In this document: positions 9,940 to 39,127 of the stretch, one piece after another | How positions within the stretch are numbered: the stretch's first letter is position 1 | Layout of the letters: each line of letters begins with the position of its first letter | NCBI GenBank assembly: GCA_041691295.1 | Contig: JBEPVA010000001.1 | Span: 6,008 to 70,007, forward strand | Length of the DNA stretch: 64,000 bases | From: Gemmatimonadota bacterium | Lineage (GTDB): Bacteria; Gemmatimonadota; Gemmatimonadetes; Gemmatimonadales; GWC2-71-9 | Reading direction: 5' to 3' | Notes under the pieces: generated by a model | Told to the model about the DNA's origin: nothing | The model's input: only the letters and a program-made list of their open reading frames with translations | Databases searched by the model: none | Translations under genes and position numbers: made by a program

Positions 9940-10017
9940 GGGATAGCGGACGTAATTTTGAGGATGACAGCATTAAAATGATGATGCAGATGTATGTGCG
10001 CCGGCGATCTTTGGTGA

Positions 10018-10632: not shown

Positions 10633-10776
10633 GACCGCCTTCCCCCTCGGGCCGGTGAGTGGCCGAACGGCAAGGCAGCCGAACCTCCGCCTGGGGGGCC
10701 AAGGGCCGAACGACAGGCCGCGCGAAGAGGTAGGCAGGGGCCATTCCCCACGGGGCAATGATCGAGGATCTGTTTT

Positions 10777-10810
10777 CGCTTACGGCTTAAGGCTTACGGC
10801 TTATGGCTTC
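10777..10810 (+). repeat. heptamer tandem repeat GCTTANG x ~4.5
   Basis: gcttacg gcttaag gcttacg gcttatg gcttcac. The tract runs into the selD ATG (10803). Confidence 0.7.
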
Positions 10811-12145: not shown

Positions 12146-12250
12146 AGGAGTTGGAGTTTGGAATTGGGGATTCCCATTTCCCATTTCCCATTTCTCCGCT
12201 CTCCCCTCTCTGTTCTCTGTTCTCCTTTCGCCTTTCGCCTTTCGCCTTTC
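12146..12250. repeat. composite heptamer tandem-repeat tract
   Basis: ggagttggagtttggaattgggga, then TCCCATT x3, GTTCTCT x2 and CCTTTCG x4. The tract abuts the minus-strand stop at 12249-12251. On the gene's sense strand it reads GAAAGGC x4 and onward. Confidence 0.75.
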
Positions 12251-13226
12251 AGTCCAGTGACACTTCCCGGCCCACTCCCAACCGCTCTGCCTCCGCCACC
12301 ACGAACCGGGCAGCCGCCACGTCTTCGATGCCGAGTCCGAGGGACTTGAAGAGCGTGATCTCATCGGGGCGGGTCCGGCCCGGATGTTTCCGGGTCAGCA
12401 CCGCTCCCAATTCGGCGGAGATCTTGCCCGGCGCAATGCTGCGCTCGGCCATGGGAATGAGGAGATCACCCGCTTCGTTCAAGGCCGATTCCTTCGAATC
12501 GACGAACAGCGTGGCGGCGCGCACCAGGGCACTGTCGAGTTCCCGAGAGGTGGGTATGGAGGAACCGACGGCGTTGATGTGAGCCCCCGCGGCGATCCAG
12601 GCTCCCTCGACCACCGGGTCACGTGCGGCGGTCGTCGTACAGATGATGGAGGCATCGCGCACGGCGTCACGCGCCGTGTCCATCACCTCGATGGTGATGC
12701 CCCGGCTGGCCGCTTCCGCCGCGAATCGTTCGGCCCGTTCGCGAGTCCGGTTCCAGACCCGGATCCGGCGCAATGATCTCACCGAGTTGATGGCCTGCAG
12801 GTGGGTCCGGGCCTCGAGTCCCGCGCCGATCAGGGCCAGATCGTCGGCATCCTCCCGGGCCAGCCAGTCGGTAGCCACACCCGAGACCGCCGCGGTCCGG
12901 ATGGCGGTGACCGACCCGGCCTCAAGAACCGCGCTGAGCCTGCCGGAAGTTGGATCGACCAGGAGCACGGCGCCCTGATGACTGTCGAGTCCCCGTTGCG
13001 CGTTGCCGGGAAAGATGCTGACGATCTTCACGCCGAGCGACGTTGGGGTCCCGACGCAGGCGGGCATCGTGGCCATGAGACCGGAGCCATCGGGCAATCG
13101 CAGGATATTCCGCAGCGGCTGCTCGGCATTGCCCCGATCTCGCTCTTCGAGTGCTTCGGCCATCAGGCGGATGCAGTCGGTCATGGTGAGCAGTCGTTCG
13201 ACGTCCGACCGATTCAACACCCGCAT
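12249..13226 (-). CDS. ornithine cyclodeaminase / mu-crystallin family protein
   Basis: 325 aa. Rossmann LALIGAGLEARTHL and other family-typical blocks (VWNRTRERAERFA). Confidence 0.85.
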   Translation of the reverse strand: MRVLNRSDVERLLTMTDCIRLMAEALEERDRGNAEQPLRNILRLPDGSGLMATMPACVGTPTSLGVKIVSIFPGNAQRGLDSHQGAVLLVDPTSGRLSAVLEAGSVTAIRTAAVSGVATDWLAREDADDLALIGAGLEARTHLQAINSVRSLRRIRVWNRTRERAERFAAEAASRGITIEVMDTARDAVRDASIICTTTAARDPVVEGAWIAAGAHINAVGSSIPTSRELDSALVRAATLFVDSKESALNEAGDLLIPMAERSIAPGKISAELGAVLTRKHPGRTRPDEITLFKSLGLGIEDVAAARFVVAEAERLGVGREVSLD

Positions 13227-15620: not shown

Positions 15621-15661
15621 AAGGGCGGGAAAAGCGAAAAGAGAAAAGCGAAAGGGAGAGA
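15621..15661 (+). repeat. purine-rich heptamer arm (GAAAAGC family), left arm of 4HB cassette A
   Basis: gggaaaa gcgaaaa gagaaaa gcgaaag ggagaga. Positions 15634-15656 are complementary to 16112-16134. Confidence 0.8.
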
Positions 15662-15745
15662 CTCTGAGATCTATCGCGTCATTCCGACCAGCTCTCGCGT
15701 AATTGCGGTTACCCGAACGAGGTTGTCCGGTCGCATACTGTCCAC

Positions 15746-16102
15746 ATGAAGGACCACCGATCACTCAAGGCCTGGCAGGAAGCCCACCTCGTCGTAGTGG
15801 GCATTCTCAGGATCGCACGAGAATCATGGAGACCATGGGCGAGCGCAGTGTTCAGCCAGGTCCAGCGCGCCTCGTTGTCGGTGCAACTCAACATTGCCGA
15901 AGGCTGGACCTTTGGTGAATCGCCGACATCCACGCGCCACCTGAGTGTTGCCTATGGTTCAGTGGTCGAGACCCTTGACCTGCTGGATCTGATGATCGAG
16001 GCGCAGATTGCTCCGGAGGCCGAGCTTGCAACGCTGAAGAGCAATGCAGCACAATCTCAGCGCCCGCTACTCGGACTTCTCAAGCGGCGTCGACCGCTAT
16101 GA
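15746..16102 (+). CDS. four-helix-bundle protein (23S rRNA intervening-sequence protein / Avd-like family)
   Basis: 118 aa. Family pattern LKAWQEAH..., QVQRASLSVQLNIAEG, GSVVETLDLLDL. Confidence 0.85.
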   Translation: MKDHRSLKAWQEAHLVVVGILRIARESWRPWASAVFSQVQRASLSVQLNIAEGWTFGESPTSTRHLSVAYGSVVETLDLLDLMIEAQIAPEAELATLKSNAAQSQRPLLGLLKRRRPL

Positions 16103-16105
16103 GGT

Positions 16106-16143
16106 GCTTTTCCTTTTCGCATTTCTCTTTTCACTTTTCGCGC
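16106..16143 (+). repeat. pyrimidine-rich heptamer arm, right arm of 4HB cassette A
   Basis: gcttttc cttttcg catttct cttttca cttttcg. It starts 4 nt after the TGA. Confidence 0.8.
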
Positions 16144-24508: not shown

Positions 24509-24628
24509 AGAGTTGGGAGTTTGGAGGCGGGAGTTGGGAGTTTTCGAGGCAATATAGGACGCCAGACATCCTACTGATTGCTGCGCTTCATTTGCGAGCC
24601 CCTAACTCCACACTCCTGACTCCTAACC
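24509..24628 (+). repeat. gene-less purine arm / pyrimidine arm pair (GAGTTGG family)
   Basis: Arm 24509-24544 reads gagttgg gagtttg gaggcgg gagttgg gagtttt and starts right after the TGA. A 53-nt spacer follows. Arm 24598-24628 reads cctaact ccacact cctgact cctaacc. About 18/25 positions are complementary. Confidence 0.7.
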
Positions 24629-24629
24629 G

Positions 24630-25532
24630 ATGACTGAGGACCGCCCACACGTCGGCATCCTCGGCGCCGGCCTGATGGGCTCAGGCATCGCGCAGGCATG
24701 CGCCGTGGCTGGGTATCAGACCACCGTGCGGGATATTTCCGACGAGCTGCTGGCGCGGGGGCGGGCGGGGATCGTGAAGTCGCTGGGCAAGCTGATCGAG
24801 AAGGGGAAGTTGACCGCGGCCGAGCGGGATGCCGCGCTGGCTCGGCTCAGCTTCACGACCGAACTCTCGGCGCTGGCGGACTCGGGGCTGGTCATCGAAG
24901 CGGTGACCGAAGATCTGGCCGTCAAGAATGAGCTATGGCGGGCACTCGACCGGTTGTGCGGTCCGGAGGCGATCTTCGCCTCCAACACGTCGAGCCTGTC
25001 GATCGCCTCGATGGCGGCGACCACCCGGCGGCCGGATCGATTCGTCGGGCTGCATTTCTTCAATCCAGTCCCGTTGATGCCGCTGGTCGAGGTGGTCCGA
25101 ACCGCCACCACCAGTGACGAGAGCTTTGACCGGGCCATGGCGTTCGGCAGCAGCCTCGACAAGGAGGTCGTGGCGGCCAGGGACACCCCGGGCTTCATCG
25201 TCAACCGGCTGCTGGTGCCCTATCTGCTGGATGCCATGCGCGCCGTTGAACAGGGCACCGCGTCGACCGCCGATATTGATACCGCCATGAAGCTCGGCGC
25301 CGGTCACCCGATGGGGCCGCTCCTCCTGGCCGACCTCGTCGGCCTCGACACCCTGGCCAGGGTCGCCGGGATAATGTTCGCCGAGTATCGGGAAGACCGT
25401 TATGCTCCACCAGCGATACTCGAACGGATGGTCGGGACCGGGATGCTGGGCCGGAAGAGCGGAATGGGATTTTATGACTACGCTACAGATCCGCCCATGC
25501 CCGTCGATCGCAACAAACTGCGTGAGAGGTAA
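24630..25532 (+). CDS. hbd: 3-hydroxybutyryl-CoA dehydrogenase
   Basis: Motifs GILGAGLMGSGIAQ, ASNTSSLSI, HFFNPVPLMPLVEV, PGFIVNRLL. Confidence 0.9.
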   Translation: MTEDRPHVGILGAGLMGSGIAQACAVAGYQTTVRDISDELLARGRAGIVKSLGKLIEKGKLTAAERDAALARLSFTTELSALADSGLVIEAVTEDLAVKNELWRALDRLCGPEAIFASNTSSLSIASMAATTRRPDRFVGLHFFNPVPLMPLVEVVRTATTSDESFDRAMAFGSSLDKEVVAARDTPGFIVNRLLVPYLLDAMRAVEQGTASTADIDTAMKLGAGHPMGPLLLADLVGLDTLARVAGIMFAEYREDRYAPPAILERMVGTGMLGRKSGMGFYDYATDPPMPVDRNKLRER

Positions 25533-25610
25533 GAAGTGAGAGGTGAGAGGGCACTGAGATGAGCCTCCTTTTACCTGTTACCTCTCACCTGTCACCCCTC
25601 ACCTCAACCC
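25521..25610 (+). repeat. gene-less purine arm / pyrimidine arm pair (GTGAGAG family) overlapping the hbd stop
   Basis: Purine arm: cgtgaga ggtaaga agtgaga ggtgaga ggg. Pyrimidine arm: ttacctg ttacctc tcacctg tcacccc tcacctc. Positions 25522-25539 pair with 25571-25588 at 15/18. Confidence 0.75.
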
Positions 25611-25622
25611 GACTCGCACCCC

Positions 25623-26760: not shown

Positions 26761-26818
26761 GTTCCGCCCTTTTCATTTGTGCAGCTCCTTGAGCTGCGTC
26801 AGTTCAAGCTTTCTGAAG

Positions 26819-28144
26819 TCATTCTGTCAACTCTGGAGGATTGCCGCTTGGGGGCGAATGCGGCGGTCTCTGCACCTCCATGTCAGGCTTATGAACAACC
26901 TGCATTAGTGCGCGGCCCAAGAAGCGGTCGTCAATCCCAAGTTCAAAGCGGTATTGCCCAGCGACCAGAAACCGTGGATTCCCAAGCGGGACCTTAATAA
27001 AATCTGTTGTGTCCATTCCAGAAATGTCGGAAATCACATAATTGCGGTGCGATTCAAAGACGGCAATCAACATGCCTTGGGGGTCAATTATTCGGAGCTG
27101 AACCGTGTGGCTTCCGGTGGAATCCGCAGGGATCGTCAAACGCGCCAAGAAAGACAAGTCTCCCGCTTCGACTGGAAGAAGTATGGTCTCGATTAAGTCA
27201 ATCTCGGAGAAAATAGTCATCGCGCCCCCCGGCTCGTGCCTGAACTTGCGACAGATCACAGCATAAGAGCAGTTTATCCTCAGCGCATTGATGGGCTGTC
27301 CTCCCGCACCGACGAAGTGTACAGGTTGCCCCGCAAACATTTCTATTCGGCTAAGGCTCGGATAGGTTGTAATGGCTTTAACATTTCGACCCGGCAGGTC
27401 ATAGGTGGTCGACCATTGCCCACCGTGGAAGTCCCAGCACCTAATCCGGATCGCGCTGCCGACGCCGACCAACTCGAGATGTTTTTTATCGGCCAAGCCC
27501 AGAAACCTCCCGACCCTTGTTTCACCGCGGGGAATCGCACCAACTGTCCGTTCTGCAATTGTCTCGGACAGAGGGACAACTCCGGTCATATCTCCGCCTA
27601 ACACAATGCCATCACCGGTCGCGGAGGCCGTGAGCTCGATTGGCTCATGACCGGGCGCGAATAGATGACACTCCCATCTGCTCACCGATCCTGTCTCACC
27701 CAGATTGGTTACGGCAACGGTGGCGGCGAGCGCCATGGCTACCCGTCCATCCTGATATACGGCGTGGCCCGGCATAACTCTGTCCGGGAAACTCAGAATG
27801 AGATTCGGGCGTCGGGTTAGCTTCGCCAGCTCGCGCTCCAAGTTCTCGTTTTTCACTTCCGCGGACGTCAGAAGGTTGTACCAGCCGCGGAAGCTCCGTC
27901 CGACCAGCGCAGCAACGATGATTAAACCGGTAATCCAAATGCTATAAGATTGGGCTCTCTGCTCGTCCACTTGGCCATAGTACCTCTTCCAGTTTAGGAG
28001 CCAAATGGCGAGTGCGCAGAGGCCAGCGAACAAGTCGGCAGAGCCGCTTTGAGCGCTAAGTGACGCAGCGATCCATCGTCGTGCAATCGACGGTCTATTA
28101 CTCGTTGGTGGCGTGTCAACGCGACGACTGTTTGTTAGTGGCAA
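26819..28144 (-). CDS. membrane-anchored protein of unknown function (lower-GC gene)
   Basis: TTG 28144 lies 8 nt after GAGGAGG. 441 aa. Two N-terminal TM helices, a short coiled segment EVKNENLERELAKLTRR, then ~330 aa with no motif recognised. Confidence 0.6.
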   Translation of the reverse strand: MPLTNSRRVDTPPTSNRPSIARRWIAASLSAQSGSADLFAGLCALAIWLLNWKRYYGQVDEQRAQSYSIWITGLIIVAALVGRSFRGWYNLLTSAEVKNENLERELAKLTRRPNLILSFPDRVMPGHAVYQDGRVAMALAATVAVTNLGETGSVSRWECHLFAPGHEPIELTASATGDGIVLGGDMTGVVPLSETIAERTVGAIPRGETRVGRFLGLADKKHLELVGVGSAIRIRCWDFHGGQWSTTYDLPGRNVKAITTYPSLSRIEMFAGQPVHFVGAGGQPINALRINCSYAVICRKFRHEPGGAMTIFSEIDLIETILLPVEAGDLSFLARLTIPADSTGSHTVQLRIIDPQGMLIAVFESHRNYVISDISGMDTTDFIKVPLGNPRFLVAGQYRFELGIDDRFLGRALMQVVHKPDMEVQRPPHSPPSGNPPELTE

Positions 28145-28294
28145 GAGCGAGTCCTCCTCTTGTCTCTGCTTTGGGTAGCGAAATGGGCTCCCGAGTGGTG
28201 TGTAGGCTGGATGCGCCGTTGCCGAATTAACCTACACAGTGGTGACCTACCAAGGCTCAGCCTGCCTGATAGCGCATCCTACCACTCTGTGCCT

Positions 28295-29281
28295 TCAGTT
28301 GGTCGCAACCGTGCCCATAGCCACCACCTCGAAGCTGCTCCCCTTCACACCCTTCAATTCGTTGAGCTCGTCGTCGCTCCAGCGGGGATCGGGAGCGCCG
28401 GAGAAATACCAGTTACTGCCGTTGTCGGCCACGATCATCCCGTAGGTCTTCATGGCCTGGAGGATGACCCGGGCGGTCGGCGAAAATCCGCTGATATCGT
28501 AACTGGCCTTGAGCCGGACCCGCATGCCCATCGGCGGCAGGTTGACGCTGGTGGAACTGCTGGCCGCGTGGCGGGCCGGCGCGATGAAGCCGTGGCGTGA
28601 GTGGACCACCGTGAACCGGATGGCGTGGTTGATCGCGCCGGCGGTCACGGCCTCGTCATACCGCACCAGCCCCGGAAAGATCGGCAGCCCGGCGGCATCG
28701 GCCGAGGTCCAGCCGGCCGGGCGGAGGCTGTTGCTGGCGAGGTCGAAGACGGCGCCACTTCCGGCGGTCCAGCCGCCATGCCCGTCCGGGTAGGCGGCGT
28801 ACAATTCGTACAGCTTCCAGGCGTCCCGGTCGATGATCAGGATATGGCGGTCGCCACCGCTCGAGGCGCCCCCTTCGATCGGCGCACCGGCCGGGATCGG
28901 GTACGGCCCGGGATCGCTTTCGTCAGCATAGTCGAAGGACACCGGCACCCAATGGGTCGAGTCGCTGACGACGATATACGGAATGCCGAATGGCGAGCCA
29001 CCCAGATCGGCCCCGAAGTCGGGATGCAGCCCGGTATTGAGCCCGATGCCGGCGATCAGGTTGTCGGAGTTGGGGTCGACGGGCCGGCTGTCGATGGCGG
29101 TGTTCCAGGGATTGTCATCGGGAAAGGGCCGCCGGCCGTTGAGGCTGGCATTGATCCCGATTCCCGTGGTGTCGGTGTCCGGGTGGTGATTGATGCCGGT
29201 GCTGCCGCCGTCCTGCCCGCAGCCGATCAAGCCGAACAGACCCAGAAGCGTCAACAGGCGGTATGGAGTCATGGGGTGCAT
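28295..29281 (-). CDS. conserved-looking secreted lipoprotein, family not recognised
   Basis: Leader MHPMTPYRLLTLLGLFGLIGC. RBS GGAAGG. Conserved-looking blocks GWTSADAAGLPIFPGLVRYDE, HAIRFT and YGMIVADNGSNWY. Confidence 0.7.
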   Translation of the reverse strand: MHPMTPYRLLTLLGLFGLIGCGQDGGSTGINHHPDTDTTGIGINASLNGRRPFPDDNPWNTAIDSRPVDPNSDNLIAGIGLNTGLHPDFGADLGGSPFGIPYIVVSDSTHWVPVSFDYADESDPGPYPIPAGAPIEGGASSGGDRHILIIDRDAWKLYELYAAYPDGHGGWTAGSGAVFDLASNSLRPAGWTSADAAGLPIFPGLVRYDEAVTAGAINHAIRFTVVHSRHGFIAPARHAASSSTSVNLPPMGMRVRLKASYDISGFSPTARVILQAMKTYGMIVADNGSNWYFSGAPDPRWSDDELNELKGVKGSSFEVVAMGTVATN

Positions 29282-29525
29282 TTTGCCTTCCATTGGTCGG
29301 TGATACGATCCCGGCCAGAGGCCCGAAATGGCCCGAAACCTTGCCATTCGGCCTCCGACCGGACAACTTGTAAGCGCGGGTGTAGCAAGTGATTATCCCG
29401 CCTCGCCTTCGCAGTTATGTGGTCGGTTTCCGCATCCTCGAAATCGAGAGTACCTGACCTCCGTTTCAAGACGCGGACCGGTACGGTTCTGCCCGGACGG
29501 AGCGACTTCAGCCCAAGGACCCAGG

Positions 29526-31145
29526 ATGCGCCAACTCCGGATCGGGATTCTCGATCTCGTCACCAAGAGTCCCAACCCGTCGCTGTATGGGCGGATGATG
29601 AATGCCAATCTCGCCAGCATCATGCCGCAGGTCCTGGGCGTCTGGTGCCAGCAAGCCGGTCATAAAGTCACCTTCGTCTGCTATACCGGTCTCGAGAACC
29701 TGCTCGAGGAGCTGCCGGCCAACCTCGACATCCTTTTTATCGGCGCCTTTACGCAGTCGGCCCAGCTGTCGTATGCCCTGAGTAACGTGTTCCGGAAGCG
29801 CGGCGCCATCACCGTGATCGGTGGTCCCCACGCCCGCTGCTACCCCGAGGATGCGGCCAAGTACTTCGACTACGTCCTCGGCTTCACCGACAAGAGCCTG
29901 GTCAACGAAGTCCTGACCGAATGCGCCCAGCACCGGCCGTTCGGACGCCAGATGGCGGCGGCCAACCAGCCAACCGACCTGCCCTCGGTCCAGGAGCGCT
30001 GGGACTTCATCGAACCGACGCTGGCCAAGGCGCCGACGATCAAGATCGTCCCGATGATCGGCAGCCTGGGCTGCCCCTACACCTGCAGTTTCTGCATCGA
30101 TTCCACGGTCGACTACCAGCCGCTCAGCTTCCAGCAGCTGCGGGACGACCTGACCTTCATCCAGACCAAGTTCAAGAACCCGATCCTCGGCTGGCACGAT
30201 CCGAACTTCGGGGTGCGGTTCGAGGACTACATGGATGCTATCGAGGCCACGGTCAAGCCGGGCCGGATCCGGCATATCGCCGAGAGCAGCCTGTCGCTGC
30301 TGTCGGAGCCGCACCTCAAGCGGCTCAAGGCCAATGGCTTTCAGGCCATCCTGCCCGGCATCGAGTCGTGGTACGACCTGGGCAACAAGTCCCGGACCCG
30401 TAACACCGGCATGGACAAGGTCAAACTGGTGTCGGATCATGTGAACATGATCCTGCGCTACATCCCCTATATCCAGACCAACTTCGTGATGGGCCTGGAT
30501 GGAGATATGGGGCCGGAGCCGTTCGAGCTGACCAAGAAGTTCATCGACCTCTCGCCGGGCGCCTTCCCGGCCTACTCGCTGCTCTCGTCCTTCGGGCGGG
30601 CGGCGCCGATGAACCTCGATTACCAGCGGGCCGGACGGGTCATGGCGTTCCCGTTCCACTTCCTGAACAACAACCACGCCATGAACGTCCGGCCCAAGAA
30701 CTACTCCTGGACCGACTTCTACGACGGGTTGATCGACGTGACCCGCTATTCGTTCTCCTGGAAGGCCATTGCCAAGCGGATCCCCGCCACCGACGGCGCC
30801 ATCCCGAAGTGGATGAATGTGGTCCGGGCCATGAGCTCGGAAGGCTTCGGCCGGATCAAGTACCACACCATGCTGCGTAAGCGGCTCGACACCGACAAGG
30901 AGCTGCGCAGCTTCTTCGACGGCGAGACCACCAAAATCCCGCAGTTCTACGTCGACCGGATCAAGGACGACCTCGGGCCGTTGTTCTCCGAGCTGCCGGC
31001 CGGCGCCATCGAGCACGATCCCAACGCCTGGCTCAAGCTGCAGACGCCGGATACCGTCGTACTCAAGGCCGCACCGGGGCGGCGGGCCAATCGGCCGGCG
31101 CCGGAAGCCCAGGTACCGGCGCCGATGTCGCCGAACGACGCCTGA
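29526..31145 (+). CDS. B12-binding-domain radical SAM protein (class B-like)
   Basis: ATG 29526. N-terminal Rossmann-like region. Cluster motif GCPYTCSFC (CxxxCxxC). Long C-terminal region of unknown function. Confidence 0.85.
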   Translation: MRQLRIGILDLVTKSPNPSLYGRMMNANLASIMPQVLGVWCQQAGHKVTFVCYTGLENLLEELPANLDILFIGAFTQSAQLSYALSNVFRKRGAITVIGGPHARCYPEDAAKYFDYVLGFTDKSLVNEVLTECAQHRPFGRQMAAANQPTDLPSVQERWDFIEPTLAKAPTIKIVPMIGSLGCPYTCSFCIDSTVDYQPLSFQQLRDDLTFIQTKFKNPILGWHDPNFGVRFEDYMDAIEATVKPGRIRHIAESSLSLLSEPHLKRLKANGFQAILPGIESWYDLGNKSRTRNTGMDKVKLVSDHVNMILRYIPYIQTNFVMGLDGDMGPEPFELTKKFIDLSPGAFPAYSLLSSFGRAAPMNLDYQRAGRVMAFPFHFLNNNHAMNVRPKNYSWTDFYDGLIDVTRYSFSWKAIAKRIPATDGAIPKWMNVVRAMSSEGFGRIKYHTMLRKRLDTDKELRSFFDGETTKIPQFYVDRIKDDLGPLFSELPAGAIEHDPNAWLKLQTPDTVVLKAAPGRRANRPAPEAQVPAPMSPNDA

Positions 31146-31154
31146 AGGCGTCGT

Positions 31155-31180
31155 GCCGTTAGCCGTTAGCCATTAGCTGA
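31155..31180 (+). repeat. heptamer tandem repeat GCCGTTA x3
   Basis: gccgtta gccgtta gccatta gctga, 10 nt after the rSAM stop. Confidence 0.65.
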
Positions 31181-31193
31181 TCGGATAGAAAAC

Positions 31194-31230
31194 GACCCTC
31201 CGGTGGCTGGTGCCGGAGGGTCGATTTCTT
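31194..31230 (+). terminator. intrinsic terminator after the rSAM gene
   Basis: Stem gaccctccgg/ccggagggtc (10 bp), loop tggctggtg, then gatttctt. Confidence 0.6.
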
Positions 31231-31345
31231 CCAGGATTCGGTATTGGCGTTAGGAGCTGGCTTACTTGACGCGACTGCGGAACAACACAGTAAGTCAGTC
31301 GACTTTCCATGTGGCCCGAGCTCTGTCGACATTCCTGGATAGCAG

Positions 31346-31377
31346 AAACCCGGCGCCGAATGGCGCCGGGTTTTTTT
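31346..31377. terminator. bidirectional intrinsic terminator
   Basis: aaacccggcgcc-gaat-ggcgccgggttt followed by tttt, with an A-tract upstream. It can terminate the minus-strand rhs operon and plus-strand read-through. Confidence 0.7.
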
Positions 31378-31450
31378 ACGGGCCACTGGCCCATCCAGCG
31401 GAAGGTTACGCTTCGTGCTAGGTATCGGCACGGGCCATCGCGAAGCAAGC

Positions 31451-31888
31451 CTACATGTCAGAGGTGATGCTGGCCGCACAAATGGTCCACCGGTCCGCCT
31501 TGCGGACGAAGTTCACGCTCAATTCAGCCCACGCATTCCCGGCCCGCGAATACTGGAAGACCACTGCTGCACTGTCCGGATGCCGCTGGGTTATCTGCTC
31601 CGCAATGAGCTTGGCCAGATTGGGGTGAGCAAGCACAGTATCATTGGCAACCAGGGCGAGCCCTACAGTCATTGCGCGCTCATTGCAGCTTAATTCGAGT
31701 ACAGTCGATGTATCGCGCTTTGCAGATGCATTCAAGAATTGCCCTAACACGAAGGTTAAGGTGACAATCGGCTCTCCGCCTGGAAGCGGGCCTGAGTGTC
31801 GAGTCCTACCACTCGCGCAATCCATCAGAGACAGCCCTATGATCGAGAAGAGGCCGGCAATTCGAAGTCTGGCTCGGCGCCGGCTCAT
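31451..31888 (-). CDS. exported lipoprotein, candidate immunity protein for the orphan rhs toxin
   Basis: The start overlaps the orphan toxin stop by 4 nt. Leader MSRRRARLRIAGLFSIIGLSLMDC. No family recognised. Confidence 0.55.
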   Translation of the reverse strand: MSRRRARLRIAGLFSIIGLSLMDCASGRTRHSGPLPGGEPIVTLTFVLGQFLNASAKRDTSTVLELSCNERAMTVGLALVANDTVLAHPNLAKLIAEQITQRHPDSAAVVFQYSRAGNAWAELSVNFVRKADRWTICAASITSDM

Positions 31889-32715
31889 GGGGTTCCCCTA
31901 TCATCGCAACGCTTGTCCTGGCCCGCAGCAGCGTGATATTGGTTTTCTACGCGGATCGCACGGTTCTGGTAAAGCAGTCTCGCGCGAGGGTCTGATCCGG
32001 TATAGGCTCCGGTCGAGCTTTCCGTCTGGTGACCGAGGAGTTCATGCGCGGCCATTACGCCGAGGTCAAACGTGTGTTGGCCGTTTGGATCCTCGGGACA
32101 TGCCGCGTAATCGACCATTTGCATCATATCGATTGTCGAGGCAAACCCAGCGGATGAGGACCGCCCATTTCCAATGGTCACGGTAAGCGTGTGGTCCTTG
32201 TCGTCGTTGATCAATTCTCTAAGAGTCTCCTGGAGTCTTTCGTACCCCTTCCCCCCTTGGGGGATGGAACCAGTGGCACAGTGATTCTTGTCCACCAAGA
32301 TGATCGTGTTCGTGGCCTTTTCGGCAGCTTTCTGAGCTAGCCGCTGCTCGCCAACGTCTTTTCCAGTAAAGCATAGCTTCAGCCCAAATGGATCAGTCAA
32401 TGAAGACGGATTGTTCCCGTTGAACTGATAGAGGTTGAGGCCTTCGCTAACACCAAGCGGAGCCTCCTGCAGCCAGCGCCCGGTACGGCTGTCGTAGGCC
32501 CGGTTGCGGAACAGGGCGATCTCGGGGGTTTCCGGAACATTCATCCGGCTGCTCTGGAAGCTGGCGGAATTGGCGTTCCCGCCGGTCCACTGCCAGCCGG
32601 TGGTGATCCCGAGGTTGTCGGGATTGCTATCCAGCGAGCCATTGGAGTCGCTCGTCGCCAGCAATCCACCTCGACCGTCGGTGACGTAGAAGTACGAGCG
32701 CCAGGCGGCAAAGCC
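31885..32715 (-). pseudogene. orphan rhs C-terminal cassette (5'-truncated core end plus HELLGH metallopeptidase-like toxin)
   Basis: AWRSYFYVTDGRGGLLATS...RNRAYDSRTGRWLQEAPLGV..LNLYQFNGNNP..DPFGL parallels the end of the full RHS gene. It shares the identical 28-nt cctgcagccagcgcccggtacggctgtc. A unique ~165-aa tail carries AAHELLGHQ. There is no own start; the upstream junction is about 32712-32720. Confidence 0.75.
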
Positions 32716-32894
32716 CCCGCGAGGAGCTGATCCTTCCGCGCGGTGATCTGACCGGGATGGACATCAAAGCGCTTGGCCAACTCGGCCAGCGTGCTTTCCG
32801 CCCGGACGGCGGCCAGGGCCACCTTGGCCTTCAATGCGGGGGCATGGGTACGACGGGGACGTTTCGACTTCAGGAGCTCCTCGGCTATGGGCAT
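32716..32894 (-). mobile_element. IS3-family orfA N-terminal remnant (~60 codons)
   Basis: MPIAEELLKSKRPRRTHAPALKAKVALAAVRAESTLAELAKRFDVHPGQITARKDQLLAG resembles the HTH N-terminus of IS3 OrfA. No orfB and no inverted repeats were seen. Confidence 0.6.
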
Positions 32895-32993
32895 ACTCTC
32901 GCCGGGGGGGGCTCGCGTGTCCACTGATCCCGCCTGTTCAGAATACCGGAGCCACTTCTCTATGTCCTGCACACGACCGAAATGCGGTCACGC

Positions 32994-33677
32994 TTATGGA
33001 GCAAACGGCGGACTTTCTCGATGCGACCAGGCCACGAGTTCGCCATGCGAAAAAGTGAGAGCGTACGCCATGGCGACCCACGATCTCTCAAAACCACCGA
33101 GGTTTCTTGTTAGCACTGTAATGACAGCAGTTGCCCCTTTGTCAGAGTTGTCAAGAGGATGGTCGAATGGCCAGTCCCCGGGACGGGCGAGATCCCACGC
33201 GGCCATGACACCCGGCCGCGTAGTGGAGTCCACACCCGGGAGAACAATCTCAACTGCGCCGAAAGGATCGGCCAAGAGCGCAAGGCATTTCACTTTGTCC
33301 TGGTTCGAACGACACCCGGAGCCGCTCGTGACTATCTTCGCGATTGCTCCAAGGTCTTGCTGCTGAAACCCGCCGGCCCGAAATACTGAATCGCCTGCAT
33401 GGACGAGCAAGAACACTTGATCGCTCGCTCCAATTCGCCAGACAGTAAATTCATTCGAAAGGTGCGGGCCTCGTTCAATCCTCAATCCTGCAGGATCCAC
33501 AACCGCGTCCTGGGTCACGCTAGAAAGCGAAAGCTCATTCGTCGCGTTTTGGCTGACCAGTAGTCTGATACGCTCGATCGTGCCTAGGGACTGTGCCTTC
33601 AACACCGACTGTCCCGGTATAGCAAGTAGAGAGGCGATGGAGAATGCCTGCAGAACACACGATTGCTTTAACATCAA
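32994..33677 (-). CDS. exported protein, candidate cognate immunity for the RHS toxin
   Basis: Its start overlaps the RHS stop by 4 nt. Signal peptide MMLKQSCVLQAFSIASLLAIPGQSVLKAQS. Lower GC. Confidence 0.6.
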   Translation of the reverse strand: MMLKQSCVLQAFSIASLLAIPGQSVLKAQSLGTIERIRLLVSQNATNELSLSSVTQDAVVDPAGLRIERGPHLSNEFTVWRIGASDQVFLLVHAGDSVFRAGGFQQQDLGAIAKIVTSGSGCRSNQDKVKCLALLADPFGAVEIVLPGVDSTTRPGVMAAWDLARPGDWPFDHPLDNSDKGATAVITVLTRNLGGFERSWVAMAYALTFSHGELVAWSHRESPPFAP

Positions 33678-36600
33678 GGCTGCCTTTGCCCGTATTCGGG
33701 TCCGAGTTCCGCACGAATGATATTCTCATTCGCCAATGTACAAGGATCCCCATCTGTACAACCAGTCCCTGCTGATGTCACCGTTAGGGCGTGAGCTGTT
33801 TCATGTCCGAGAACGATTACGCCATCAACCTTAACGTGAATTCGACCCTCCGAACCCGCGAAGTCAGACGGTTTAATCTGGATTTCGACCTGATTGTGCA
33901 CAACTTGTCCAGACGTGGCCCCCGAGAATTTGCCTCGCGGCAATGGATCCTTCGGACCAAGCTCGACGATATGATAGACGATCTTTGATTTTTCGAGCTT
34001 GGCCAAATTGGCGTTACAAGTACCCGACTTTTGTCGGCATAGATCCACATACATCTGTGCTCCTGCTTCGACATCCAATTTTAGACCGAAGGGGTCGGTG
34101 TACATGGCCGGATTGTTCCCATTGAACTGATACAGGTTGAGCCCCCCGCTCACGCCGAGGGGGTCTTCCTGCAGCCAGCGCCCGGTACGGCTGTCATACG
34201 CCCGATTTCTGAACATTGACACCTCGGGCGTCTGCGGAATGTTCATGCGACCAGCCGCAAATGACGTGGAGTTCGACGTACCCCCAGAATACTGCCAGCC
34301 AGATACCGTGCCGTTGTTATCCGGATTGCTCTGAAGATTCCCGGTGGAGTCACTGCTGGCCAGCAGCCGTCCCTGGCCATCGGTGACGAAGTAGTACGTC
34401 CTCCATTCGGGGAAGCTACCGACAACTGGGTACTGGCCGACAGCCATCAGCGGATCGTCGAGGCCTGGACCCTGGATCACCTGGTAGACTCGGGTGGCAA
34501 AGATTCCCGCAACGTTGTCGCCATCATACGCAAGCTTCGGAGCCGCCCCGCACGGATTGGACAATTGGCCGTCCGGGTAATACTGACAGCTGTTCAGACC
34601 AGTAGTGTTGAAAGCTAGATTGGTTTCTGCCCAGGCCATCCCGGACATCCGGCCACTGGCGTCATAGAACTGAATCCTTGAGCGGGTATCGAGCCCGGCC
34701 CCACCACCACCAGCATGGGCGCTGTCGATTTCCCGGGCCCCGTTGGCGTCATAGCTCATCAGGATGAGAGGATAGCGCGGGACCCCTGAGGTGGAATCAG
34801 CCATCGAGAGTACACGGTTATGGCCTGTGGCAACCTGGAAGTTCTTCAGGTCAACGTAGGCCCCACCAGAATCCTTTGACCAGACCATGTTCCCTGACGC
34901 GTCGTATTGCTTCCATTGGCTGACATAGTCGAGCCGGCTCTGCTGCTTGGTCAGCATGTTGCGCCAGTTGTACAAATAGTCGTCATTTTCATTGAGACTT
35001 GATGACGTGTGGCACTCGGAGCCCATCCAGGTCTGAGCGCGATCGCAGGTCATGACTCGATTGGTCAAACGGCCTATTGCGTCGCGATTGTCGCTGAGGC
35101 TGAATTTGAGAATGTCGCCGTGCATGTTGCTGGCCGGGGGTGGATCGCCAGGCAGAGAAACGACACGTCTCACGACCCCTCGAATGTCATGATCATAGGC
35201 CACCACCATGTGCCTGACGGGATAATATATCGAGTCCCGCCTCCCGAGCTCGTCGGGTATGAATGTAAAGGTCTGGCTGGTCGCCCAGGCGGCCGTATTC
35301 CCTCTTACTAGATCGAGAAATGTGGTAATCGTGTATAGGTCGCCTTGCGAATAGTAGCCGTAGGCCAGACTGTCCCGTACCGGGTTGTGGTTATTGAAGT
35401 CGTTCGATTGAATCGCGTGGTACATGGAGGTGCGAGCACCTCCCAGGTCATACGTATAGCGTATCGTATCAATTGGAGCGAACGCGGATGTACTCGCGAT
35501 GATCTTGCTCTTCAACGCACCGTCGGCAAAGTAGGTCTGAATTAGTTTGGCATTCCTATTCTGCGTCGTCAGCACTCGCCCGATCAAGTCATAGGTGTAG
35601 TTAGTTGTATCCCCGGGCGTGGTTAGAGAGTTCCTCGTGACCGATCCAAACCACCTGCTCATCAGACGACCAGAGGCGTCGTAGCTAAAATGGATCACCT
35701 GACCAGTCCGGAGGGTGGTGGTTTGAAGCAACCCATCCGTTGAATAGAATGAGATGTTGGATGCCCCGTAATCGTCCTGTTCGCTGCTCAACAGCGCGCG
35801 GGCATCCCTCCGGTAAGTGCGTGCGACTGCGCGCGGGTCAGATACCTGTGTAATCCCGACCCGGCCCTGAGTGTAGTTGGTTATCAGACTGTCCGGGATC
35901 GTATCTTGTGACCATTCGTTCAGAGTGCAGATGACCTGAGCCGCATTGCAGGTTGACAGACTGGCCAGCGCCGACGGGATGAGGTAGTTGGGCACCGGCT
36001 TGGTAACAGCCCGGGCCTGGGTTACTCGATTTAGTGCATCGTACTTGTACGACGTCCGCATTTCGGCTGGGTCATATATATCAAGAGCGCGACCTACATT
36101 GTCGTTGACGTATCCGGTTGCCATCCCTGCGGCATCCCAGGTCACCTGCAGATTCCCCACTGAGTCGTATCTGAATCTCACGGTCTGGTCGATCACCGAA
36201 GTCGTCCCGAAGTACTGGGACCAGGTGGTCACTGACTTATCAACCACGCTGTCCAAGACACCCCGGTTGAGGCCGGCACCGTGGACGGCGTATTTGGTGA
36301 TGTGAGTTCGCGGGTCGAGCGTGTGCTCCAGAAATCCCAGCGAGTCATAGAAAAAGCTCGTGACCCGCCCCATCGGATCGGTGACGGACTTGGGAGAATC
36401 GGGCACCAGGCTGGTGGAAACAGTGTCATAGGCATAGGTGGAGGTCCGATTGCCACGCCCGTCGAGCGCCTTGGTGCTGTCCTTGACCTGGGTCAAGTTG
36501 CCGCGGGCATTCCACGACATCCGGATGACCCGACCCGTGGCCCCCGCCGTCGTCGGGTGCGGATAGACCACCTTGGTGACGAGGGCAGGGGTCTTGGTAC

Positions 36601-38407
36601 TGTCATGGTAGAACCAGGTCTTGGTGCCCAACCCCAAGTGCATTGACCGAGTGGGCTGCCCGAACCGGTCCACCCAGAAGGTGACGGCATCGGACAGCCC
36701 GCTCAGGGGGCCATCATATTGAGTCGTCAGCCCCAGGCTATCGGTCGTCAGGGCCAGTGCCCCCAGCCCGTTCTCGTCCCAATTCGTGATATACGAGGTC
36801 TGGAACTGAGCCCCGGCTGAATCAGCCTGCACCTCCACCTTGGTCAGTCTGGCGGAGTTGGCATAGGTGAACCTGGTGACTGCGGTATCAGCCAGGGTGG
36901 TATGCGCCTGTCTGGGATAGGACCGCCAGGTCATCCGGCCACCGGCGTCGTACCCGAACCGAGTGGTGTCGGTGGCACCCGGCTGAATCAGGCTGGTCAG
37001 CCGGCCACTTGCGATCGTCGCCTTGAGCTGTCGCCCGGTCGGATCGGTAATCCCCTGGAACACCGCCGTCCCGCTCCATTGCAGCGTGTATTTCAGGGAG
37101 TCGGTGCCGTTCGGCGGCACCACGATCGAAATCAGACGGGTTTGGCCATTGACGGTGCCCCAGTTGAAGGTGGTCACCGCCTTGGCACGATTCGTCGTTG
37201 ACCGGTGACGCCCGGTCGGGTCGAATCGGACCGATGCGCCATGCTTGAGGTTGCGGAGATACCACTTGCCCCCGGTGCCGGTGTAGTAGATCAGGCTATC
37301 GGGCGCATCCCCCGGCGCCGCCTGGAATACGGTGTCCCCCGGCAGTTTCTTGCTGTAGACGCGCAGCGAGCCATCGCCCGCTGCCCAGATGCGCTTCGTC
37401 GAGTCCCCTGGGACGGTCAGGATCTGCTCCACACCCAGGAGCGACCATCCCTGCCCGTACTCGCTGGCCGAGCGATTCAGCACCAGAACTTTGCCGGTGG
37501 CGGTATCGATCCTCGGACCCGACGCATAGGTATTCGTGACGATGAGCGTGTCGGGATAGTAGCCAGTCGCAATCCCCGTCATCGATCGACCGAAGACGAC
37601 CTGTTGGGAATCTGACCACGGCGCGCAAGGCGAGCCGGTGCAATTCGAATTGTAGGCCGGCGGGGCCATGAAGAACGAGTCCTTGAGCCCCGCCAGTTTC
37701 AGCACTCCGATGACATTGGTCGGCAATGCGATGGTGCTGGCCTCCACCACCCGCGCGGGCACCAGCACCAGCCCGACCGCAGCCGCGGAGTTATAGTAGA
37801 GGGTGGGACTCCGGTCCTTGCCGAGAGTCCGGTAGGCTGGCAGGCTGGCGGTCACGAAGAGATCTCCACACGAAATCCCCGCACTCTCCCCGGCGCCGAG
37901 CGTCAGGCAGAGACCCCGATCAACGTTGGCCACATTGGTATCGACCAGCCGGATCGACGCGTACCCGCTCGCGGCCACGACAATGGTCCGCGATCGGTTG
38001 GGCCCGCCGGCATCGTTCACGGAGACCGAGGCACCGGCGTATCCGGAACCCGTGGTCGCTGAGGTGGCATAGGTGATGGTAAGGGTGATGACCTGACCCG
38101 CGGTCAACGTCGCCGTGGCGGGCGTCACCGAGCTGCAGGTCACGGGGCCGCTCTGGACGCAGCTCATATCCACCGACCGGCCGCCGGTCGACACATTCTT
38201 GATCTGTTCCTGAAAGGTGAACGGTCCCGAACTCGGCAGGCGGTTGGGCTCGTATTGCGGCGTGCCACCCACGAAAACCACGTCATCGCCGAGGGCGTTG
38301 GTGTGAACTTGTGCGGCAATCGGTCCTGGCGCCAAGGCAATAAGAAGCCCCAAGAGCCTCAGCGAGACCCCACCAGACCAGACGGGTCCGCCCGCGCGAC
38401 GTGTCAT
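33674..38407 (-). CDS. RHS / YD-repeat polymorphic toxin with C-terminal HExxH metallopeptidase-like domain
   Basis: 1577 aa. Sec signal. Many YD repeats (FGYDAGGRM, YKYDALNRV, FRYDSVGNL, FSYDASGRL, YTYDLIGRV). Core end is RNRAYDSRTGRWLQEDPLGV...DPFGL. The ~135-aa tip contains LGHETAHAL. Confidence 0.9.
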   Translation of the reverse strand: MTRRAGGPVWSGGVSLRLLGLLIALAPGPIAAQVHTNALGDDVVFVGGTPQYEPNRLPSSGPFTFQEQIKNVSTGGRSVDMSCVQSGPVTCSSVTPATATLTAGQVITLTITYATSATTGSGYAGASVSVNDAGGPNRSRTIVVAASGYASIRLVDTNVANVDRGLCLTLGAGESAGISCGDLFVTASLPAYRTLGKDRSPTLYYNSAAAVGLVLVPARVVEASTIALPTNVIGVLKLAGLKDSFFMAPPAYNSNCTGSPCAPWSDSQQVVFGRSMTGIATGYYPDTLIVTNTYASGPRIDTATGKVLVLNRSASEYGQGWSLLGVEQILTVPGDSTKRIWAAGDGSLRVYSKKLPGDTVFQAAPGDAPDSLIYYTGTGGKWYLRNLKHGASVRFDPTGRHRSTTNRAKAVTTFNWGTVNGQTRLISIVVPPNGTDSLKYTLQWSGTAVFQGITDPTGRQLKATIASGRLTSLIQPGATDTTRFGYDAGGRMTWRSYPRQAHTTLADTAVTRFTYANSARLTKVEVQADSAGAQFQTSYITNWDENGLGALALTTDSLGLTTQYDGPLSGLSDAVTFWVDRFGQPTRSMHLGLGTKTWFYHDSTKTPALVTKVVYPHPTTAGATGRVIRMSWNARGNLTQVKDSTKALDGRGNRTSTYAYDTVSTSLVPDSPKSVTDPMGRVTSFFYDSLGFLEHTLDPRTHITKYAVHGAGLNRGVLDSVVDKSVTTWSQYFGTTSVIDQTVRFRYDSVGNLQVTWDAAGMATGYVNDNVGRALDIYDPAEMRTSYKYDALNRVTQARAVTKPVPNYLIPSALASLSTCNAAQVICTLNEWSQDTIPDSLITNYTQGRVGITQVSDPRAVARTYRRDARALLSSEQDDYGASNISFYSTDGLLQTTTLRTGQVIHFSYDASGRLMSRWFGSVTRNSLTTPGDTTNYTYDLIGRVLTTQNRNAKLIQTYFADGALKSKIIASTSAFAPIDTIRYTYDLGGARTSMYHAIQSNDFNNHNPVRDSLAYGYYSQGDLYTITTFLDLVRGNTAAWATSQTFTFIPDELGRRDSIYYPVRHMVVAYDHDIRGVVRRVVSLPGDPPPASNMHGDILKFSLSDNRDAIGRLTNRVMTCDRAQTWMGSECHTSSSLNENDDYLYNWRNMLTKQQSRLDYVSQWKQYDASGNMVWSKDSGGAYVDLKNFQVATGHNRVLSMADSTSGVPRYPLILMSYDANGAREIDSAHAGGGGAGLDTRSRIQFYDASGRMSGMAWAETNLAFNTTGLNSCQYYPDGQLSNPCGAAPKLAYDGDNVAGIFATRVYQVIQGPGLDDPLMAVGQYPVVGSFPEWRTYYFVTDGQGRLLASSDSTGNLQSNPDNNGTVSGWQYSGGTSNSTSFAAGRMNIPQTPEVSMFRNRAYDSRTGRWLQEDPLGVSGGLNLYQFNGNNPAMYTDPFGLKLDVEAGAQMYVDLCRQKSGTCNANLAKLEKSKIVYHIVELGPKDPLPRGKFSGATSGQVVHNQVEIQIKPSDFAGSEGRIHVKVDGVIVLGHETAHALTVTSAGTGCTDGDPCTLANENIIRAELGPEYGQRQP

Positions 38408-38704
38408 AAGGAACTCCGATGGGAGGCGGTGGAGGAACCGGGCCGCTCAGCCACTCATCCGGCCAAGCACGACAGACCGCACATTCAGTTGACTCACGAA
38501 TCGACGCCACGATATTGCGTCGTGAGCCTCCGGAGAACAACTACCGTCGATGGTAGGGAAGAAAAACCGAACAAGATGCCATTCCGAGAACAGCGGCGGG
38601 AGCAGGATTTTTCGTCGTTCCAGGGCTTCCGGGATCAGGCCATCTCACTCTCTGCGAAACCCGGCTGGCGGAATCTGCGCCGATAATCACAGGAGCTCCT
38701 CTTC

Positions 38705-39094
38705 ATGGCAACCACCACCGACCAGAACAAGCAGAACGTCTGGGCCTTCTACGACCTGGCCTTCAACCAGCAGCAGCCCGAGCAGGCGGTCCAGCGCTAC
38801 CTCGGCGCCAGCTACAAGCAGCACAACCCGATGGCCGCCGATGGACCCGAGCCGTTCATCGGCTTCGTCCGCTGGATCACCGGTGAGAATCCCAAGCTGC
38901 GATTCGAGAAAAAGCGGATCATCGCCGAAGGGGATCTGGTCACGGTGCACTCACACCTGGTCCCGGCCCCCGGCGCCCGCGGCACCGCGGTCATGGACAT
39001 CTTCCGGCTGGACGGGGACGGCAAGATCGTGGAGCACTGGGATGTGCTGCAGGAGGTGCCCGAGACGGCCAAGAACGGCAATACGATGTTCTAG
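38705..39094 (+). CDS. SnoaL-like / NTF2-fold protein
   Basis: 129 aa. Pattern ends ..DIFRLDGDGKIVEHWDVLQ. Confidence 0.75.
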   Translation: MATTTDQNKQNVWAFYDLAFNQQQPEQAVQRYLGASYKQHNPMAADGPEPFIGFVRWITGENPKLRFEKKRIIAEGDLVTVHSHLVPAPGARGTAVMDIFRLDGDGKIVEHWDVLQEVPETAKNGNTMF

Positions 39095-39127
39095 GAGCGC
39101 CCGTTAGCGGCAGTTAATCGTGCAGGG

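Follow-up and report, generated by a model that had tools for sequence, protein, structure and literature searches.

Introduction

Among the long simple sequence repeats (SSRs) of prokaryotes, heptamers have been described as the most over-represented, and slippage has been proposed as their cause (Mrazek, Guo and Shah, 2007, as summarized in PMC4692102 and PMC4679880). In Xanthomonas and Nostoc, the heptamers GGGAATC and GGGGAYT lie on average 28 nt from the upstream open reading frame (ORF) and nearer to it than to the downstream ORF; their position is conserved between related species, length and sequence vary, and some Xanthomonas pairs are inverted (Rehm et al., 2015; PMC4692102). The TAACTGA repeats of marine Beggiatoaceae, Cyanobacteria and Bacteroidetes provide stops in all three frames (MacGregor, 2015; PMC4679880). 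Extragenic hairpins 1–20 nt past stop codons are known from Enterobacteria and Pseudomonas, where repetitive extragenic palindromes (REPs), bacterial interspersed mosaic elements (BIMEs) and REP doublets forming hairpins (REPINs) occur as inverted doublets in genome-specific families (PMC12306157; PMC3733652). Here, we analyze heptanucleotide arrays at gene 3' ends in a 64-kb stretch (63.8% G+C) of contig JBEPVA010000001.1 from a Gemmatimonadota bacterium, hereafter the window, whose positions are used throughout. A literature search returned no description of these repeats in Gemmatimonadota.

An initial annotation of this DNA had noticed that matching repeats close two pairs of unrelated genes, namely hbd (3-hydroxybutyryl-CoA dehydrogenase) and an amidohydrolase gene, and thyX and a DUF3565 gene. 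It had proposed dispersed elements that settle at gene 3' ends and remodel C-termini, and had ranked local slippage as less likely. The analysis presented here points, with moderate confidence, to heptanucleotide SSR arrays of the class of long SSRs with 7-nt units, which populate gene 3' spacers in this Gemmatimonadota lineage. The repeats are a known kind in an unusual organization rather than a proven mobile element.

Heptamer Arrays of the Window

Using Tandem Repeats Finder (TRF) together with our own period-7 scan, approximately 12 tandem arrays of period 7 were called in the window (Table 1); counts for the source organism refer to these 64 kb. The arrays comprise 2.7–8 units each, all are intergenic, and most begin 0–10 nt from a stop codon. 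The excess is specific to this period, with nine arrays at period 7 against 0–3 at periods 4–12 and close to none in shuffled sequence. Furthermore, 21-mers of each unit, allowing up to three mismatches, find 5–9 matches in the window as opposed to 0.00 in 100 dinucleotide-preserving shuffles. Head-to-tail 7-nt units, a period-specific excess, and polymorphism of unit number and unit sequence between relatives are the features of heptamer SSRs, and all were found here.

Both cases of the initial annotation belong to these arrays, and its sequences and coordinates proved correct throughout. Positions 25522–25552 at the hbd end read GTGAGAGGTAAGAAGTGAGAGGTGAGAGGGC and match the reverse complement of 56626–56656, GTGAGAGGTAAGAGGTAAGAGGTGAGAGGGC, at 29 of 31 positions, with the E-R-stop ends of both genes inside the shared stretch. 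Positions 44821–44838 after thyX (TAGAGTCGAGGGTCGAGG) are the exact reverse complement of 58020–58037, a match which extends to 21 nt, and the DUF3565 gene ends in TAG AGTC one heptamer earlier. The repeats are indeed recurrent families in fixed orientation directly after genes. Coincidence of low-complexity sequence, which the annotation had named as an alternative, can practically be discarded: at 31 and 18 nt the matches are short, and they are repetitive in themselves, but the shuffles and the period specificity speak against chance, and dozens of independent assemblies show this architecture as well.

Three unit families recur within the window, namely GTGAGAG (hbd, amidohydrolase), GGTCGAG (thyX, DUF3565) and CGAAAAG. 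The last follows an ornithine-cyclodeaminase-family gene, flanks an intervening-sequence (IVS) protein gene on both sides and occurs once more distally in the amidohydrolase array. Units at the gene junctions are graded, as in TGAAAGG/(CGAAAGG)x3, GGTCTAG/AGTCGAG/GGTCGAG and AGTGTAG/AGTCTAG/AGTCGAG/(GGTCGAG)x3. The GCTTACG array includes a start codon, which suggests that arrays may supply starts as well as stops.

The hbd Locus

The hbd gene of the window ends ...CTG CGT GAG AGG TAA (L-R-E-R-stop), and its last three codons (R-E-R) and TAA (25530–25532) fall inside a purine-rich arm. A pyrimidine-rich arm, 79–84% complementary to it, follows within the 90-nt spacer to a DUF2231 gene (ATG at 25623), and the hairpin folds with −38.3 kcal/mol in sense (z −4.2) and −46.5 in antisense orientation (z −5.1). 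A second hairpin upstream of hbd begins 2 nt past the stop of the preceding gene and finishes 3 nt before the hbd ATG (sense −51.5 kcal/mol, z −4.1; antisense −47.9, z −5.7).

The closest hbd relative of the window, from a Gemmatimonadota metagenome-assembled genome (MAG), is 94% identical. When the window is aligned with L001 (94% identical), the nucleotides of hbd agree perfectly through the DPP codons, the identity collapses after them, and both the RNKLRER tail and the 3' hairpin are missing in L001. Across 77 usable metagenomic orthologues, the ancestral end ...LG[LVI]-stop is kept in approximately 60, with the next gene 0–60 nt away, and departures from this end coincide with heptamer arrays or hairpins. 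In L194, hbd ends DLQ-TGA, and a GTGAGAA hairpin has this TGA as its first unit. In L198 (LGL+GRTNVSSKR) and L196 (LGL+GGKR) the gene continues into the purine arm up to an in-frame TAA or TGA, and a 34-nt internal deletion relative to L198 has moved the stop of L129 into the former 3' arm. The hbd tails of L155, L172 and L176 are likewise encoded by arrays. Judged from these alignments, the hbd tail of the window is remodelled and lies inside a lineage-specific hairpin. A supposed further truncation in L013 (GFYDY-GEK-TGA) was rejected, as it belongs to a 42%-identical paralogue with an end of normal length.

The Amidohydrolase, thyX and DUF3565 Loci

Remodelling of C-termini, as originally proposed, therefore holds for hbd, where LG[LVI] gave way to RNKLRER; alignment of orthologues shows that thyX and the amidohydrolase gene have each kept their native end, and for DUF3565 no clear change is seen. 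The amidohydrolase gene ends ...AAA GGT GAG AGG TAA (K-G-E-R-stop). In its family the core FVMKGGxVVK is followed by a tail of 1–12 aa, and GER resembles the GSER, GAR and GGQ of relatives. The 80%-identical amidohydrolase of L005 ends AGC GAG AGG TAG and is followed by an unrelated (TGTCAGG)n array. As the GAG AGG stop stands there beside an unrelated array, E-R-stop predates the GTGAGAG array of the window. The periodicity of the window runs on through AAAGGTG AGAGGTA, which suggests a native proto-repeat as the origin of the array. Tails rich in G, Q, A or R which are translated repeats do occur in other relatives, for example with a repeat of 8 nt in L003. The window array at 56626–56663 gave no structure upon folding (z +1.0). 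In L005, a composite (TGTCAGG)n-(GGGGTTA)n at 1–60 and 1449–1520 flanks the amidohydrolase gene on both sides as a direct repeat approximately 1.4 kb apart, a pairing that hints at array copying between neighbouring spacers.

The C-terminus [FY]HKV is found in all 120 thyX homologues compared, 114 of which are exactly 250 aa long. The array following thyX is orthologous in L126, L127 and L002 with the unit family GAGTCGA/GGGTCGA/GTGTCGA kept, and amounts to 2.5 units in the window, four in L126 and six in L127; in L002 it forms a hairpin. In the window, a second GGTCGAG-type cluster lies at 44858–44876. The thyX array is unstructured in folding and is placed in the 3' untranslated region, 5' of a canonical terminator.

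The DUF3565 gene ends ...C-G-G-V-TAG (GTG TAG) followed by AGTC, one heptamer earlier than thyX, and the first unit of the adjoining array contains the V codon and TAG (58042–58044). Tails in this family vary past the conserved CxxC, and GGV resembles the GGIDV of homologue P0363; on this comparison the DUF3565 C-terminus looks native. At 58237–58272, four copies of the 9-nt unit TCGCCCGTC stand between the stop of a Tricorn-like protease gene (58280) and the likely DUF3565 start (58230). The corresponding protease genes of L003 and L004 end in or at an AGCCGTA/GCCGTTR heptamer array, and the DUF3565 gene is absent there.

Gain, Loss and Turnover of Hairpins

At the hbd site, array-bearing orthologues are scattered over the tree, and hairpins have been gained, partly deleted and lost at this single site. 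In L143 and L153, a complete hairpin of approximately 72–75 nt fills the exact interval from the hbd stop to the following ATG, where relatives of 94–97% identity have 0–3 nt. Both inserts fold strongly and their units differ (GGCGTAG and GTGGGAT); in L143, the hbd stop changed from TGA to TAA with the hairpin. Independent gains at the site in fact brought a different unit each time. Comparison of filled and empty sites for L143 and L153 revealed no target duplication, the 0–3 nt spacer being replaced, which departs from MITEs, the miniature transposable elements with inverted repeats. The L143 and L153 hairpins both end ...TGAGGT(G/A)T..ATG, with a Shine-Dalgarno-like GAGG 5–7 nt before the downstream start. 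In relatives, this downstream start overlaps or abuts the hbd stop.

The two arms are exchanged together. L137 (GGTAAGC/GCTTACC) and L148 (GGGAGC/GCTCCC), whose coding nucleotides are 89% identical, have hairpins at one site with different units in both arms. Among copies of one family within the window or within single MAGs, the order and number of units vary, as do loops and flanks, and no common loop, flanks, fixed length or target duplication was found among them.

Generality, Stop Adjacency and Polarity

Searching 185,579 species genomes for (GTRAGAR)x3 yielded at least 120 loci. The order of the matches listed is unknown, so that taxon proportions are those of a sample; Gemmatimonadota account for 22 of the 120 matches listed, and the others come from Bacteroidota, Verrucomicrobiota, Planctomycetota, Acidobacteriota, Cyanobacteria and further groups, GTRAGAR arrays being present in at least eight phyla. 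Arrays from unrelated genomes match the 31-mers of the window at 27–28 of 31 positions. The 29/31 identity within the window therefore represents family background and is not evidence of copying, contrary to its earlier use as a sign of a common dispersed element. A recent duplication between the hbd and amidohydrolase loci was rejected for the same reason.

Arrays of any family proved dense in Gemmatimonadota DNA: a survey of 220 kb counted 70, and a survey of 285 kb counted 89 with a length of at least 21 nt. In the 220 kb, 16 of 40 upstream long ORFs have their stop inside the array, and approximately ten more have it within 12 nt, which bears out the earlier claim that repeats can supply stop and terminal codons. 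For GTRAGAR arrays among the matches listed, the upstream stop is inside the array in 11 of 25 cases from Gemmatimonadota and 30 of 62 from other phyla, and these stops fall at +1, +8 or +15, that is, on the TGA of unit 1, 2 or 3.

Inverted pairing has a strict direction. Among the matches listed, a complementary array lies within 200 nt downstream of 21 of 29 Gemmatimonadota GTRAGAR arrays (upstream 0) and of 17 of 104 arrays from other phyla (upstream 0), and the purine arm comes first in 38 cases against none. Other unit families show this bias too, with 7:1 for purine-rich 5' arms and 7:0 for pyrimidine-rich 3' arms. Overall, approximately 70% of Gemmatimonadota arrays are followed by a complementary pyrimidine-rich array, giving hairpins with energies between −30 and −60 kcal/mol. 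Of seven hairpins folded both ways (set: 25515–25612; L137, L143, L148, L153, L198), five are more stable as antisense than as gene-sense RNA, most mismatches of the sense strand being A.C. This means either that selection does not act on the structure in mRNA or that G-to-A changes accumulate in the gene-proximal arm, for example those creating TAA. In L074 (approximately 4395–4560), a GTRAGAA hairpin directly follows an apparent tRNA or tmRNA 3' end (GGTTCAATTCC...); if this putative RNA gene is real, hairpins would not be confined to the ends of protein genes.

Candidate Functions Examined and Other Features of the Window

A search of the window with Rfam 15 at gathering score and a search for tRNA and tmRNA genes gave no matches. 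The hbd-flanking hairpins have no T-run after them, as an intrinsic terminator would, and a terminator role was rejected for them since they lack a U-tract and lie within an operon; for unpaired arrays it was rejected as separate canonical terminators lie downstream. Mimicry of Shine-Dalgarno (SD) sequences was considered as well, GAGGTGA being a rotation of GTGAGAG and complementary to the 16S 3' tail, and was rejected because the longest SD match, at 3.8 nt, shows no improvement over permuted units at 3.2 nt (29 arrays not selected by sequence). A preference for stop-bearing units was dropped too, 6 of 14 families in a hand count not differing significantly from the expected proportion of approximately 29%.

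After the GCCGTTA array at 31155–31177, a terminator-like hairpin and T-rich tract can be read by eye. The hbd and thyX gene clusters, only approximately 4 kb apart in the relative L002, are separated in the window by a block of approximately 16 kb (26800–41500), which includes a 1577-aa RHS-repeat protein (33674–38407) and whose long ORFs score poorly on a gene filter based on G+C content at third codon positions (GC3). Elsewhere, 52924–52978 is a perfect (GGCG)x13.8 tetranucleotide repeat, and 9940–10770 comprises approximately 850 nt with no convincing ORF and no Rfam match, in which an inverted repeat is located (10329–10359/10602–10632; 31 nt, 87% complementary). At 6668–7198, a Lys/Ala-rich ORF built of 12–48 nt tandem repeats (AAGAAGCC-type) has no Pfam match and resembles histone H1-like or other basic repeat proteins.

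Table 1. Genes, heptamer arrays and hairpins of the window, in order of position.
Feature	Positions	Strand	Remarks
GCTTACG array	10778–10809	+	GCTTACG GCTTAAG GCTTACG GCTTATG GCTT; contains ATG (10803) of AIR-synthase-related gene
Composite array after ornithine-cyclodeaminase-family gene	12171–12251	-	TGAAAGG (holds stop), (CGAAAGG)x3, AGAACAG-type units, (GGAAATG)x3
Inverted heptamer arms	15625–15657 and 16111–16143	+	33 nt, 88% complementary, GAAAAGC-type
Hairpin upstream of hbd	24510–24627	+	GAGTTGG-type arm 24510–24542, CCTAACT-type arm 24601–24627
hbd	24630–25532	+	Pfam 3HCDH_N and 3HCDH; tail RNKLRER instead of family-typical LG[LVI]
Purine-rich 5' arm	25522–25552	+	GTGAGAG GTAAGAA GTGAGAG GTGAGAG + GGC
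Pyrimidine-rich 3' arm	25567–25605	+	ACCTGTT ACCTCTC ACCTGTC ACCCCTC ACCTC; complementary to 25522–25550
GCCGTTA array	31155–31177	+	10 nt past stop of radical-SAM gene
thyX	44071–44823	+	Native, invariant C-terminus; ends G-Y-H-K-V-TAG
GGTCGAG-type array	44817–44838	+	Begins in thyX K-V-TAG codons: GGTCTAG AGTCGAG GGTCGAG G
Canonical intrinsic terminator	44912–44946	+	13-bp stem and TTTTTT, downstream of thyX array
(CGAAAAG)x5–6 array	56585–56627	-	Directly distal to GTRAGAG array; unit family also at 15628, 16113, 12224
GTRAGAG array, without inverted partner	56626–56663	-	Period 7 crosses codons K-G-E-R and TAA (56646–56648)
Amidohydrolase gene	56646–57965	-	Amidohydro_1; core end FVMKGGxVVK, tail GER
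Array after DUF3565 gene	58003–58049	-	AGTGTAG AGTCTAG AGTCGAG (GGTCGAG)x3 GGTCAC
DUF3565 gene	58042–58230	-	Likely start Met at 58230, ORF open up to 58272; ends CRLC-GGV-stop

Origin of the Arrays and Competing Explanations

Slippage combined with template switching within the hairpin is the most likely origin of the arrays, and transposition of a fixed-sequence element is less likely. Units drift by point mutation followed by amplification, and replication slippage would let arrays grow and shrink. In this phylum, template switching within the hairpin (quasipalindrome correction) would usually supply the second arm and maintain its complementarity, and the purine-first polarity would follow because only T-purine-purine arms can safely abut a reading frame. 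The ranking given to slippage in the initial annotation is thereby reversed as far as the shaping of arrays is concerned, where the process is well supported; this does not extend to the first appearance of whole hairpins. GTGAGAG- and GTAAGAG-like units carry TGA or TAA and, as 7 is not a multiple of 3, any three units of such an array would between them give a stop in each frame. A gene that loses its own stop, or from which an unconstrained tail is deleted, would then end 1–12 codons into the array. C-terminal remodelling would thus be a by-product, confined to unconstrained tails, of arrays taking over termination when the native stop or tail is lost. By analogy with E. coli REP elements (PMC12306157), a stable hairpin that begins within approximately 15 nt of the stop could plausibly alter termination and 3'-end stability and uncouple the translation of adjacent cistrons.

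Several observations weigh against this account. Window and L001 agree at 96% in the hairpin upstream of hbd, without any change of unit number, and arrays are therefore not hypermutable on that timescale. For nearly all of the approximately 12 arrays of the window, the unit family recurs at one or more further loci within the 64 kb; likewise, GCCGTT-type units occur at four loci in L004 and GAGTGTC at two in L002. So small a unit repertoire per genome points to inter-locus copying, homogenization or sequence-specific selection. No intermediates were seen between the 0–3 nt spacer and the complete two-armed hairpin of L143 and L153, which looks like a one-step insertion. Two steps of the proposed scheme, the template switching and the reason given for the purine-first polarity, are inferences in themselves. 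One-step appearance and the small repertoire together leave a small but real chance for a mobile or copy-based mechanism.

In its most explicit form, such a mechanism would involve non-autonomous mobile hairpins, similar to REPINs or MITEs, which a trans-acting enzyme inserts at gene 3' ends and which bring their own stop codon. This seems to us rather unlikely. The presence or absence of whole hairpins between stop and ATG among 94–97% relatives, including the TGA-to-TAA change of L143 and the missing 3' hairpin of L001, would fit it, as would the few unit types per genome, the composite on both sides of one gene in L005 and a position like that of REP elements near stop codons (PMC12306157). 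Same-family copies, however, have neither loop nor flank in common, are not of one fixed length and show no shared target-site duplication, the unit differs with every independent gain at the hbd site, and the 29/31 match of the window is no better than those in unrelated genomes and phyla. Moreover, many arrays, including three of the four initially described sites, have no inverted arm, GTRAGAR arrays are spread over at least eight phyla, and no transposase turned up, although no search aimed at transposases was made. Of the initial idea of dispersed elements at gene 3' ends, the presence and absence of whole hairpins at stop and ATG thus stands, and a shared element with a common loop, flanks or target duplication does not. 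A related reading is an undescribed 3'-end element of Gemmatimonadota and, more loosely, of several other phyla, an obligately purine-first heptamer hairpin of approximately 75 nt that is placed whole at the stop/start junction, has co-evolving arms and is produced or spread by a dedicated process, be it a hairpin-specific nuclease or transposase or IVS/Avd-like cassettes with the gene-free hairpins as empty forms. An element of this kind would rewrite C-terminal tails and would uncouple neighbouring cistrons in translation; we consider it doubtful.

The cassette idea taken by itself, in which a PF05635 gene (Avd-like four-helix bundle) sits in the loop of an array stem and gene-free hairpins are empty derivatives, is improbable. 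At 15625–16143, a 33-nt stem of 88% complementarity encloses a 23S-rRNA-IVS-protein gene (PF05635, Avd-like; 15746–16102), the only place where such an ORF lies within a long inverted-repeat stem, the four sites of the two initial cases having no ORF. All three other PF05635 homologues found in 1.35 Mb of retrieved DNA adjoin arrays: in Prevotella, the gene of L101 lies between purine and pyrimidine arrays and that of L054 has its stop in the purine arm, and in the Gemmatimonadota locus L035 a (GTGAGAA)6 array lies upstream. These are four cases only, though, three of them from loci selected for arrays, at an array density that permits chance adjacency; gene-free hairpins have unrelated loops, and the PF05635 gene of L126 has no obvious heptamer flanks. 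Selection of the heptamers as cis-acting RNA or DNA signals, kept through factor recognition, is possible, if well short of probable, and could coexist with SSR arrays as the best explanation, since origin and function are separate questions. The roles proposed are mRNA 3'-end protection, ribosome stalling at termination, Rho insulation or protein binding every 7 nt. Position and unit family of the thyX array are kept at 72–93% identity while the spacer diverges, the hairpin upstream of hbd is conserved to the same degree as coding DNA, and the strict 38:0 polarity, fold z-scores of −4 to −12 and the recurrence of GTRAGAR units across phyla also speak for a signal. Precedents exist in REP elements, reported to stall ribosomes when at most 15 nt from the stop (PMC12306157), and in CspB, reported to bind heptamer repeats with one protein per unit (PMC4679880). 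Yet orthologous sites have unrelated units (GTGAGAG versus TGTCAGG) or, in approximately 65 of 77 hbd orthologues, no array at all, unpaired arrays are unstructured and the window has no Rfam match, the SD resemblance does not exceed composition, and antisense RNA is often the more stable.

Significance and Comparison With Known Systems

If the picture of SSR arrays in 3' spacers is correct, fast-evolving periodic hairpins form the boundaries of gene ends in this phylum. For annotation, this would mean that many of the variable C-termini of Gemmatimonadota proteins, such as the G/V/S/K/R-rich tails of hbd and amidohydrolase, are translated arrays and not domain variation. The hairpins would also break stop/start overlaps that probably couple translation and could thereby change operon expression. 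The 38:0 polarity and the joint turnover of arms offer a natural system in which to follow the formation and persistence of quasipalindromes and microsatellites in bacteria.

Stop codons and tails supplied by arrays have precedent. In searchable literature, we did not find many unit families per genome, obligate purine-first hairpins, whole-hairpin gain and loss at the stop/start junction and concerted arm turnover described for Gemmatimonadota. To our knowledge, neither hairpin polarity nor placement at stop codons has been described for the cyanobacterial short tandemly repeated repetitive (STRR) heptamers. These repeats of Calothrix and Nostoc do resemble the present ones in forming several intergenic tandem heptamer families per genome, as far as the citing paper reports (cited in PMC4692102). 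The prokaryotic heptamer SSRs share head-to-tail 7-nt units, over-representation and a mostly intergenic location with the arrays of the window, whereas the many unit families of this genome, the strict purine-first inverted pairing and the start at the stop codon are not part of their description as relayed by later papers (Mrazek, Guo and Shah, 2007). Xanthomonas and Nostoc each have one unit per genome, capable of forming G-quadruplexes and lying on either strand relative to the gene (PMC4692102); in contrast, the arrays described here have no G-tracts, belong to several families, are purine-rich on the sense strand and form near-obligate hairpins.

The 23S rRNA IVS is similar to the locus at 15625–16143 in its long inverted-flank stem around a PF05635 ORF, but the copy in the window is not located in rRNA and is flanked by heptamer arrays. 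With REPs and REPINs, the arrays have in common the extragenic position just 3' of the stop codon. REPs, however, have a conserved non-periodic sequence, often with a GTAG/CGTC tag, and a cognate REP-associated tyrosine transposase (RAYT), whereas the stems here are built periodically from variable units, around loops that are not conserved; nor were many near-identical imperfect palindromes of 20–40 nt found within the window or single MAGs. The effect noticed by the initial annotation is also that of TAACTGA in Beggiatoaceae, where an overlap with the stop codon of the preceding gene is described for 13 sets of repeats, although this is a single unit, located mostly just 5' of start codons, with practically a single inverted case and a proposed role in translation initiation (PMC4679880). 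Together with the reports from Xanthomonas, Nostoc, Beggiatoaceae and the REP systems, the arrays of the window would share a common theme of repeats which tolerate or exploit the stop-codon boundary.

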